This document shows, in pieces, positions 42,102 through 46,182 of a stretch of DNA of 64,000 nt. The DNA lies in NCBI RefSeq assembly GCF_003334815.1, contig NZ_QOWO01000002.1; one strand, 5' to 3'. Both the position numbers and the translations under genes were made by a program. Every line of letters starts with the position of its first letter. Position 1 is the stretch's first letter. The DNA comes from Escherichia coli. GTDB taxonomy: Bacteria; Pseudomonadota; Gammaproteobacteria; Enterobacterales; Enterobacteriaceae. Under the pieces are notes generated by a model. That model saw nothing but the letters and a program-made list of their open reading frames with translations, ran no database searches and was not told the DNA's origin.

Positions 42102-43304
42102 TTAACTGGCTTTTTTAATATGCGGAAGGTCGAACGCTTTGCGCAGCGCCCGAACAAACGCTTTATCATGGCAGATAGTTTTGCCAGGGCTGTCAGAAAG
42201 TTTCGCCACCGGTTTACCGTTACACTCTACCAACTTAATGACAATATTCAGGGGTTTTACCTGGGGGATATCGCAGGTCAGGCGAGTCCCAATACCAAAA
42301 CTTAATTGCACGCGGGAAGAGAAGTGGCGGTATAGCTCAACCGCTTTGCGTAAATCCAGATTGTCAGAGAAAACCAGCGTTTTACTCTGTGGATCAATTC
42401 CCAGCTTTTCATAATGTGCAATGGCTTTTTCACCCCATTCAACCGGGTCGCCAGAGTCATGACGCAGGCCCTGATACCGACTAGCGAACTCGACACCGAA
42501 ATCACGCAGGAAAGCATCCATAGTGATGCAGTCGGTTAATGCAATGCCAAGTTGGTCGGGATACTCTTCCAGCCAGGCAGCAAGTGCAGCTCGCTGGCTG
42601 TTGGCTAGATCCGGGCTGATTTGCTGATGTGCCTGGAACCATTCGTGTGCCTGTGTTCCCATCGGCGTGAGGGAAAGCCGACGCGCCAGATCGTAGTTGC
42701 TGGTGCCCACAAACCAGGATTCCTGTTGCAGACGCTTAACGATGGTTTCTTGTACTTCGCGAGAAAAACGGCGACGGGTGCCAAAATCCATCAGATGGAA
42801 GCGCGACATATCAAGACCGGCGGTTAACGCCGAGAAGTCGACTAATTTGCTTTCCAGCGTGTCGAGGGCTTGCGCAACGTCGGCCTGCGGTGAGCGATAG
42901 CGATGTACCATTTCACTGATAACCGCCAGCAAAGGAACTTCCCAGAGGATGACTTCACGCCACGGGCCGCTTAAACGAATATCCAGCTTGCCATTATCGT
43001 TGGACACGGTGACTTGTTCCGGGTTAAAGCGGAACTCGCGTAACCAGTTAAGATAGTCGGCCTTAAAGAAAGGCAGGGCAGAAAGCCACTGATATTCATC
43101 ATCCTGCAGGCGCAGGTGCTGCATCGCCTGAACCTGTTCACGAATAGCATCGGCATAAATACCCAGCAGATCGTCACCTCGGCAACGAAACTCCGCCGCG
43201 ACATGCACATCGTAATAGTGATGAAACACGGCTTGCTGCATATGCAACTTATAAGCATCTGTATCCAGCAACGAGTGCAGAACAGGAGAAGCGAATTGTG
43301 TCAT
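42102..43304 (-). CDS. pncB: nicotinate phosphoribosyltransferase
   Basis: ORF-track 416 aa trimmed to ATG at 43304 giving 400 aa ([32 protein letters not shown]…). Confidence 0.95.
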
Positions 43305-43333
43305 AGGTGCGCAGTAGCGTCCTCGTACAGGAG

Positions 43334-43351
43334 CGTTTAGTACAATAAACA
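43334..43351. promoter_or_regulatory. NadR operator-like palindrome (NAD box) upstream of pncB
   Basis: CGTTTA-GTACAA-TAAACA, near match to TGTTTA-N6-TAAACA, 30-47 bp upstream of the pncB start codon. Confidence 0.65.
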
Positions 43352-43569
43352 TCTTCAGGAACTGCTGGAGTATACCTTGTTTCGCAATTTATTGAACCCC
43401 GATCACACCATATGCCACCTTTCTGGTCGATGGCATTACGCGGTGTATGTTATAAAAATGTAGCAATAAAGGCGTTTGTACCTGAAAAGATGAAGATTCT
43501 GCATAGCGCGATTTACGCAACAGGAATAGACTGAACACCAGACTCTATAAAAGATGCTAAAGGTTATTT

Positions 43570-46182
43570 ATGACTCAACAGCCACAAGCCAAATACCGTC
43601 ACGATTATCGTGCGCCGGATTACCAGATTACTGATATTGACTTGACCTTTGACCTCGACGCGCAAAAGACGGTCGTTACCGCGGTCAGCCAGGCTGTCCG
43701 TCATGGTGCATCAGATGCTCCCCTTCGTCTCAACGGCGAAGACCTCAAACTGGTTTCTGTTCATATTAATGATGAGCCGTGGACCGCCTGGAAAGAAGAA
43801 GAGGGCGCACTGGTTATCAGTAATTTGCCGGAGCGTTTTACGCTTAAGATCATTAATGAAATAAGCCCGGCGGCGAATACCGCGCTGGAAGGGCTTTATC
43901 AGTCAGGCGATGCGCTTTGCACCCAGTGTGAAGCCGAAGGTTTCCGCCATATTACGTATTATCTCGACCGCCCGGACGTGCTGGCGCGTTTTACCACCAA
44001 AATTATTGCCGATAAAATCAAATATCCCTTCCTGCTTTCCAATGGTAACCGCGTTGCGCAAGGCGAACTGGAAAACGGACGCCATTGGGTACAGTGGCAG
44101 GACCCGTTCCCGAAACCGTGCTACCTGTTTGCGCTGGTGGCAGGCGACTTTGATGTACTGCGCGATACCTTTACCACGCGTTCTGGTCGCGAAGTAGCAC
44201 TGGAGCTGTACGTCGATCGCGGCAACCTTGATCGCGCGCCGTGGGCGATGACCTCGCTGAAAAACTCCATGAAATGGGATGAAGAACGCTTTGGCCTGGA
44301 GTATGACCTCGACATCTATATGATCGTCGCGGTGGATTTCTTCAATATGGGCGCAATGGAGAATAAGGGGCTGAATATCTTTAACTCCAAATATGTGCTG
44401 GCCCGCACCGACACCGCCACCGACAAAGATTACCTCGATATTGAACGCGTTATCGGCCATGAATATTTCCATAACTGGACCGGTAACCGAGTGACCTGTC
44501 GCGACTGGTTCCAGCTCAGCCTGAAAGAAGGTTTAACCGTCTTCCGCGATCAGGAGTTCAGCTCTGACCTTGGTTCCCGCGCAGTTAACCGCATCAATAA
44601 TGTACGCACCATGCGCGGATTGCAGTTTGCAGAAGACGCCAGCCCGATGGCGCACCCGATCCGCCCGGATATGGTCATTGAGATGAACAACTTCTACACC
44701 CTGACCGTTTACGAGAAGGGAGCGGAAGTGATTCGCATGATCCACACCCTGCTTGGCGAAGAAAACTTCCAGAAAGGGATGCAGCTTTATTTCGAGCGTC
44801 ATGATGGTAGTGCAGCGACCTGTGACGACTTTGTGCAGGCGATGGAAGATGCGTCGAATGTCGATCTCTCCCATTTCCGCCGTTGGTACAGCCAGTCCGG
44901 TACACCGATTGTGACCGTCAAAGACGACTACAATCCGGAAACCGAGCAGTACACCCTGACCATCAGCCAGCGCACGCCAGCCACGCCGGATCAGGCAGAA
45001 AAACAGCCGCTGCATATTCCGTTTGCCATCGAACTGTATGATAACGAAGGCAAAGTGATCCCGTTGCAGAAAGGCGGTCATCCGGTGAATTCCGTGCTGA
45101 ACGTCACTCAGGCGGAACAGACCTTTGTCTTTGATAATGTCTACTTCCAGCCGGTGCCTGCGCTGCTGTGCGAATTCTCTGCGCCAGTGAAACTGGAATA
45201 TAAGTGGAGCGATCAGCAACTGACCTTCCTGATGCGTCATGCGCGTAATGATTTCTCCCGCTGGGATGCGGCGCAAAGTTTGCTGGCAACCTACATCAAG
45301 CTGAACGTCGCGCGTCATCAGCAAGGTCAGCCGCTGTCTCTGCCGGTGCATGTGGCTGATGCTTTCCGCGCGGTACTGCTTGATGAGAAGATTGATCCAG
45401 CGCTGGCGGCAGAAATCCTGACGCTGCCTTCTGTCAATGAAATGGCTGAATTGTTCGATATCATCGACCCGATTGCTATTGCCGAAGTACGCGAAGCACT
45501 CACTCGTACTCTGGCGACTGAACTGGCGGATGAGCTACTGGCTATTTACAACGCGAATTACCAGAGCGAGTACCGTGTTGAGCATGAAGATATTGCAAAA
45601 CGCACTCTGCGTAATGCCTGCCTGCGTTTCCTCGCTTTTGGTGAAACGCATCTGGCTGATGTGCTGGTGAGCAAGCAGTTCCACGAAGCAAACAATATGA
45701 CTGATGCGCTGGCGGCGCTTTCTGCGGCGGTTGCCGCACAGCTGCCTTGCCGTGACGCGCTGATGCAGGAGTACGACGACAAGTGGCATCAGAACGGTCT
45801 GGTGATGGATAAATGGTTTATCCTGCAAGCCACCAGCCCGGCGGCGAATGTGCTGGAGACGGTGCGCGGCCTGTTGCAGCATCGCTCATTTACCATGAGC
45901 AACCCGAACCGTATTCGTTCGTTGATTGGCGCGTTTGCGGGCAGCAATCCGGCAGCGTTCCATGCCGAAGATGGCAGCGGTTACCTGTTCCTGGTGGAAA
46001 TGCTTACCGACCTCAACAGCCGTAACCCGCAGGTGGCTTCACGTCTGATTGAACCGCTGATTCGCCTGAAACGTTACGATGCCAAACGTCAGGAGAAAAT
46101 GCGCGCGGCGCTGGAACAGTTGAAAGGGCTGGAAAATCTCTCTGGCGATCTGTACGAGAAGATAACTAAAGCACTGGCTTGA
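43570..46182 (+). CDS. pepN: aminopeptidase N (M1 family)
   Basis: 870-aa ORF, zinc-binding HEYFHNWTGNRVT with downstream GAMEN motif. Confidence 0.97.
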   Translation: MTQQPQAKYRHDYRAPDYQITDIDLTFDLDAQKTVVTAVSQAVRHGASDAPLRLNGEDLKLVSVHINDEPWTAWKEEEGALVISNLPERFTLKIINEISPAANTALEGLYQSGDALCTQCEAEGFRHITYYLDRPDVLARFTTKIIADKIKYPFLLSNGNRVAQGELENGRHWVQWQDPFPKPCYLFALVAGDFDVLRDTFTTRSGREVALELYVDRGNLDRAPWAMTSLKNSMKWDEERFGLEYDLDIYMIVAVDFFNMGAMENKGLNIFNSKYVLARTDTATDKDYLDIERVIGHEYFHNWTGNRVTCRDWFQLSLKEGLTVFRDQEFSSDLGSRAVNRINNVRTMRGLQFAEDASPMAHPIRPDMVIEMNNFYTLTVYEKGAEVIRMIHTLLGEENFQKGMQLYFERHDGSAATCDDFVQAMEDASNVDLSHFRRWYSQSGTPIVTVKDDYNPETEQYTLTISQRTPATPDQAEKQPLHIPFAIELYDNEGKVIPLQKGGHPVNSVLNVTQAEQTFVFDNVYFQPVPALLCEFSAPVKLEYKWSDQQLTFLMRHARNDFSRWDAAQSLLATYIKLNVARHQQGQPLSLPVHVADAFRAVLLDEKIDPALAAEILTLPSVNEMAELFDIIDPIAIAEVREALTRTLATELADELLAIYNANYQSEYRVEHEDIAKRTLRNACLRFLAFGETHLADVLVSKQFHEANNMTDALAALSAAVAAQLPCRDALMQEYDDKWHQNGLVMDKWFILQATSPAANVLETVRGLLQHRSFTMSNPNRIRSLIGAFAGSNPAAFHAEDGSGYLFLVEMLTDLNSRNPQVASRLIEPLIRLKRYDAKRQEKMRAALEQLKGLENLSGDLYEKITKALA

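Follow-up and report, generated by a model that had tools for sequence, protein, structure and literature searches.

NadR is the NAD-responsive repressor of the genes of both de novo NAD synthesis and NAD salvage in the enterobacteria, and the target of its N-terminal helix-turn-helix domain is a palindromic operator of 18 bp, TGTTTA-N6-TAAACA, the NAD box (PMC2330245, PMC2330246). The protein is trifunctional; in the literature it is described as binding DNA when there is sufficient NAD and as leaving the DNA, with ATP bound, when NAD is low. In Escherichia coli K-12 the gene b4390 is annotated as the DNA-binding transcriptional repressor/NMN adenylyltransferase NadR. The genes repressed by NadR include pncB, nadB, nadA and pnuC, and in the case of pncB this repression has been stated for both Salmonella and E. 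coli; the EMSA experiments of the same 2025 study covered nadB and nadA-pnuC only (PMC12421817). For the 11 Enterobacteriales reference genomes of a regulon reconstruction based on RegPrecise, pncB was predicted to belong to the NadR regulon in 6 (PMC5343134).

The K-12 nadA, nadB and nadR loci were scanned for the consensus, and the sites recovered serve here for comparison. The nadB box, TGTTTAGTAAATTAAACA, is perfect in all 12 core positions (0 mismatches) and precedes the nadB ATG by 7-24 bp; nadB also has an extra site with two mismatches 74 bp upstream (L004, positions 1323-1340 and 1397-1414). The box of the nadA-pnuC operon, TGTTTAGCATATAAAACA, has one mismatch to the same consensus. 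It occupies approximately -54 to -37 with respect to the nadA start mapped at NC_000913.2 position 781272 (5 reads in the data of Kim et al. 2012, PMC3415461) and overlaps the -35 region. The region upstream of K-12 nadR contains no NAD box with two or fewer mismatches. The primary paper on the binding of NadR is reportedly that of Penfound and Foster in 1999, and footprints are reportedly given in it and in the work of Vinitsky (1991), of Wubbolts (1990) and of Gerasimova and Gelfand (2005).

Here, we analyze the candidate NAD box of pncB, the gene for nicotinate phosphoribosyltransferase, in a 64-kb stretch of E. coli DNA (hereafter the window, whose numbering is used throughout); the nadR gene itself is located outside this window. 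A search of the full-text literature with the sequence of the site returned no match, and the main text of the PPTP-seq paper mentions neither NadR nor pncB (PMC10505187). We compare the site with its counterparts in other genes and other species, place it relative to the mapped promoters of the region, and weigh the other roles that such a palindrome could have.

The pncB-pepN Intergenic Region

Between positions 43000 and 44000 the window is identical to the genome of K-12 MG1655, and its coordinates are converted by the addition of 947052 (for NC_000913.3) or 946275 (for NC_000913.2). RefSeq, on this identical DNA, and the list of open reading frames place the pncB coding sequence of 400 aa on the minus strand at 42102..43304, with its ATG at 43304-43302; its downstream neighbour is asnS (RefSeq). 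The divergent gene pepN, which encodes aminopeptidase N, begins at 43570 on the plus strand (RefSeq), and the two genes are separated by an intergenic region of 265 bp (43305-43569).

This region is nearly invariant within the species. A segment of 465 bp around the site was matched in all 5426 complete E. coli genomes and had at least 99% identity in 5409 of them. The 60 bp that include and flank the box gave the same figure (at least 99% identity in 5409/5426), and within these complete genomes the box was no more conserved than its flanks.

A Predicted NAD Box in Front of pncB

The first-pass annotation had drawn attention to a palindrome, CGTTTA-GTACAA-TAAACA, at 43334-43351, and a new reading of the sequence showed its letters and its position to be exact. 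The plus strand of this segment is CGTTTAGTACAATAAACA; on the minus strand, in the direction of pncB, it reads TGTTTATTGTACTAAACG, that is TGTTTA-TTGTAC-TAAACG, and it is situated 30-47 bp upstream of the start of the 400-aa form. With a spacer of 6 bp, it agrees with the NadR consensus in 11 of the 12 core positions, the single deviation being the final G of TAAACG.

When the entire 64-kb window was searched for TGTTTA-N6-TAAACA with at most one mismatch, the segment at 43334-43351 was the sole match. Shuffled versions of the window gave a chance expectation of 0.19 such sites per 64 kb, with at least one match in 18 of 100 shuffles; scaled to the 265 bp of the intergenic region, this expectation falls to about 8e-4. 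Extrapolated to a genome of 4.6 Mb, however, the same shuffles predict some 14 chance sites of equal quality. Hence, the motif match alone is insufficient, and it is the position of the site and its conservation that must carry the argument.

The likeness to the nadB box is close. Both are 18-bp inverted repeats, and when the pncB box is read on the plus strand the two have 15 of their 18 bases in common, including a GTA that follows the left half-site, just inside the spacer. Both are near a start codon, and according to the literature both genes belong to the same regulon and answer to the same repressor; the difference is in the core, which is perfect (12/12) in nadB and has 11/12 matches in pncB. 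The nadA-pnuC box, from the same regulon, differs rather in its placement, as will be seen below.

Conservation across the Enterobacteriaceae

We scanned the pncB loci of 80 other Enterobacteriaceae, one genome per species, whose PncB proteins have 82-98% identity to that of E. coli. In 54 of the 80, TGTTTA-N6-TAAACG is present at -47 or -46 from the pncB ATG. The spacer is the only part of these 54 boxes that varies: it is TTGTAC in 46, which consequently have the exact 18-mer TGTTTATTGTACTAAACG, and takes one of four other forms in the remaining 8. Among the box-bearing genera are Escherichia, Salmonella, Citrobacter, Enterobacter, Lelliottia, Leclercia, Kluyvera, Kosakonia, Phytobacter, Pluralibacter and Pseudocitrobacter. 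S. enterica subsp. arizonae (L022), Citrobacter, Enterobacter and others carry the identical 18-mer at -47, and the E. coli site is the ortholog, without any difference, of the pncB box of Salmonella and other Enterobacteriaceae in the RegPrecise NadR regulog.

An alignment of the 55 box-bearing intergenic regions (E. coli and the 54 species) reveals how abruptly this conservation is bounded. Invariant columns make up 16 of the 18 in the box, none of the 10 in the stretch between the transcription start and the box, and 43 of the 218 elsewhere in the intergenic region. The box is thus a sharply bounded conserved island in these 55 species, and its conservation at a fixed position excludes a chance origin.

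The remaining 26 species have no box at this position, yet their promoter and distal leader have been kept. The absence extends to Klebsiella, Raoultella, Trabulsiella, Atlantibacter, Mangrovibacter, Franconibacter, Siccibacter and Superficieibacter. As the box is missing from 26 of 80 species, this form of regulation is not universal; its presence in 54 of the 80 fits the partial distribution already published (6 of 11 genomes). Other arrangements were noticed in some of these loci. In Klebsiella, Raoultella and Trabulsiella the intergenic region is 60 bp longer and has, at about -155 from the pncB ATG, the sequence TGTTCAATATATTAAACT, with two mismatches (loci L038, L041, L052, L056, L057, L059, L060, L063 and L065). 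In Enterobacter sp. Ag1 (L078, positions 1304-1321) a perfect TGTTTAGTACTCTAAACA is located at -197 from the pncB ATG, downstream of an inserted ORF of 406 aa that replaces pepN as the upstream neighbour.

In the leader of pncB, the block AACGC(T)CC-N5-GAGGA (window 43320-43337) is invariant in all 53 distinct leaders, those of the box-less species included. To judge from these leaders, the final G of TAAACG, the one deviation from the consensus, lies within sequence that is constrained independently of NadR, and it is plausible that this constraint is the reason why the G has never been "repaired" to A. The GAGGA of the block is 15 nt from the pncB ATG, a distance that is long for Shine-Dalgarno spacing, and UCCU and AGGA within the block could pair in a hairpin of 4 bp.

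Taken with the published consensus and the rarity of the motif, this distribution makes it very probable that E. coli pncB has its NadR operator, or NAD box, in the inverted repeat of 18 bp at 43334-43351. The first-pass annotation had proposed that the palindrome follows the NadR operator pattern, and this proposal has held up: the sequence fits the published consensus, the same motif is found upstream of E. coli nadA and nadB, and the conserved island persists in 55 species. Presumably NadR binds in E. coli at exactly 43334-43351.

Position of the Box Relative to the pncB Promoter

The transcription start table of Kim et al. (2012) has a single start for pncB, a G at window position 43362 (NC_000913.2 position 989637, minus strand), with 180 reads and a 5' UTR of 58 nt; the sequence upstream of this start ends ...GGTATACTCCAGCAG (PMC3415461). 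The Cappable-seq supplements (PMC4782308) have no entry for the coordinates of this start or for the name of the gene, and thus the pncB start rests on one dataset. Upstream of it, a -10 element, TATACT, occupies 43369..43374 on the minus strand (-12 to -7); all six of its columns are invariant in the 55 species, and it is also present in the box-less species. A -35-like element, TTCAAT, is situated at 43391..43396 on the same strand (-34 to -29), at a spacing of 16 nt; five of its six columns are invariant, and three of its six positions match TTGACA. A scan of 43200-43700 for consensus sigma-70 promoters and for terminators found nothing, and the pncB promoter was missed by it because its -35 element is too weak.

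Slightly farther upstream, the sequence TGTGAT (window 43402-43407, -45 to -40) has been kept in box-bearing and box-less species alike. Situated just upstream of the weak -35 element, it may be an activator half-site or a UP-like element; a CRP-like reading was dropped, on inspection only, in view of the poor second half-site and an atypical centre at about -37.5.

Measured from this start, the box extends over +12 to +29 of the 58-nt leader, with its centre at +20.5. This is the difference in placement alluded to above: the nadA box is upstream of its start and overlaps the -35 region, whereas the pncB box is downstream. The first-pass annotation had considered that a transcription start mapping upstream of the palindrome, together with a lack of NadR dependence, would count against an operator. 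The mapped start is indeed upstream, by 11 nt, and this alone does not speak against NadR. At this position the box overlaps the downstream edge of the DNA that RNA polymerase holds in an open complex, and a bound NadR would therefore overlap the DNA that the polymerase occupies.

This geometry suggests how repression could be accomplished. When NAD is plentiful, NAD-loaded NadR would occupy the box just downstream of the pncB promoter with its weak -35 element and overlap the downstream DNA held by RNA polymerase in the open complex; there it would either exclude the polymerase from the promoter or act as a barrier to its escape and to early elongation. The synthesis of nicotinate phosphoribosyltransferase would fall as a result, and when NAD is low, NadR with ATP would come off the DNA. 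The likely mechanism is thus that NAD-loaded NadR either keeps the polymerase off by steric hindrance or prevents it from leaving the promoter.

A Second NAD-Box-Like Site in the pncB Promoter

A degenerate 18-mer that resembles the NAD box (minus strand, 43378..43395; TGTTTCGCAATTTATTGA on the plus strand) covers -33 to -16 of the pncB promoter, with 8 of 12 matches. One of its half-sites is GAAACA in E. coli (-21 to -16) and lies inside the spacer between the -35 and -10 elements. Of the 54 other species with the box, 51 have a perfect TAAACA at this half-site, as does none of the 26 that lack the box; in Escherichia it has decayed to GAAACA. The half-site could be an auxiliary NadR site, or the pattern could simply be one of shared ancestry, the correlation being confounded by the relatedness of the species. 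A more elaborate scheme, in which control is exerted at two sites, the box and the half-site, by NadR multimers that bridge their centres 45 bp apart, and in which the spacer of the box serves in addition as the -10 element of a weak upstream pepN promoter open to control by NadR, appears rather unlikely.

The pepN Side of the Intergenic Region

The main pepN promoter, as identified from the table of Kim et al. (2012), from its sequence and from a block of conservation, spans 43448..43463 on the plus strand. It has an extended -10 element, TGtTATAAA (43448-43456), and its start is a G at 43463 (NC_000913.2 position 989738, plus strand, 12 reads, UTR of 107 nt; PMC3415461). The same table lists other pepN starts at window positions 43539 (7 reads), 43570 (7 reads) and 43354 (5 reads) (PMC3415461). 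The main promoters of pncB and pepN are therefore back-to-back, with their starts 101 bp apart, and the pepN promoter is clear of the box, with the main pepN start about 120 bp downstream of the box centre. Because the two are so well separated, an effect of NadR on the main pepN promoter is unlikely. The suggestion of the first-pass annotation that the divergent genes may share regulatory space is correct as far as the back-to-back promoters are concerned; the main pepN promoter, however, is some 100 bp from the box and has no overlap with it.

The weak plus-strand start at 43354 would use as its -10 element TACAAT (43341-43346), within the spacer of the box, and if this pepN promoter is real it would be under the control of NadR. 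This raises the question of whether the palindrome is there for pepN rather than for pncB, as the -10 region of a weak upstream pepN promoter. The start is indeed listed for pepN (NC_000913.2 position 989629, leader of 216 nt; PMC3415461), TACAAT is at -13 to -8 of it, and the conservation of the TTGTAC spacer in 46 of 54 species is unusual. Nonetheless, this start has only 5 reads as against 180 for that of pncB, the consensus promoter scan was empty at this point, and a -10 element leaves the invariant half-sites TGTTTA and TAAACG unexplained. Such a role is compatible with the binding of NadR and is not an alternative to it; as an explanation of the palindrome we consider it very improbable.

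The pepN leader was also compared with an RNA family. Positions 43472-43599 matched the Rfam family PepN_thermometer (RF02779) with 21.3 bits and E = 0.08-0.2, far below the gathering score of 83. The match is full-length with several non-canonical pairs, and its score comes mainly from the conserved first codons of pepN; E. coli has probably not kept the PepN_thermometer structure.

RNA-Level and Coding Readings of the Palindrome

Since the box is inside the 58-nt leader of pncB, the palindrome is transcribed, and the RNA could form a hairpin of 6 bp (UGUUUA/UAAACG) that affects the stability or the translation of the pncB mRNA. The centroid fold of the leader does include this hairpin, and the conserved G that departs from the operator consensus would form a G-U wobble pair within it. 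The minimum free energy of the 61-nt leader, however, is -9.1 kcal/mol against a mean of -9.36 kcal/mol for shuffled sequences (z = 0.10), no better than the shuffles. The consensus fold of the 53 leaders, at -2.18 kcal/mol, omits the palindrome hairpin and has no compensatory changes, the half-sites being invariant and not covarying. Moreover, Rfam has no family on the pncB side, and the motif at nadA is upstream of the nadA start, in DNA that is not transcribed. On the z-score, the lack of covariation among the 53 leaders and the absence of an Rfam match on the pncB side, we reject an RNA hairpin or riboswitch, which is even harder to credit than a role for the palindrome in pepN transcription.

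The least credible reading is that the palindrome has no regulatory role at all, being either a product of chance, as the 18 shuffled windows with a site of equal quality might suggest, or part of an N-terminal extension of pncB, as a longer ORF of 416 aa, in frame and with its ATG at 43352, runs through the box; but the fixed position of the box in 55 species and the abrupt drop in conservation beside it argue against the former, and the latter is rejected because the upstream ATG is unconserved (it is TTG in most species) and an indel of 1 nt (CACCTATG vs CACC-ATG) breaks the frame of the extension, to which the mapped start at 43362 would give a leader of merely 10 nt. The first-pass annotation had favored the shorter 400-aa start on the grounds that the extension crosses the box, and the RefSeq start, which is that of the 400-aa form, together with the TTG codons and the frame-shifting indel, bears it out.

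Discussion

The first-pass annotation had interpreted the site as a means of NAD-responsive repression of pncB, and this interpretation is supported by the fact that pncB is a published NadR-repressed gene (PMC12421817, PMC5343134). The NadR operator of pncB is almost certainly an already described and ordinary regulatory site of E. coli; that NadR represses this gene by way of a NAD box is an established part of the physiology of the enterobacteria, and the regulon databases already include it. The analysis has, in this respect, little significance beyond the confirmation of an annotation, and the demonstration that a genuine operator can be recovered from raw sequence.

What it adds are details: an operator located downstream of the start, a main pepN promoter that is separate from it, a box whose distribution is limited to part of the family, and a mismatch to the consensus that falls inside the invariant AACGC of the leader. 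Such details could be of help in the engineering of pncB expression for the production of NAD or NMN.
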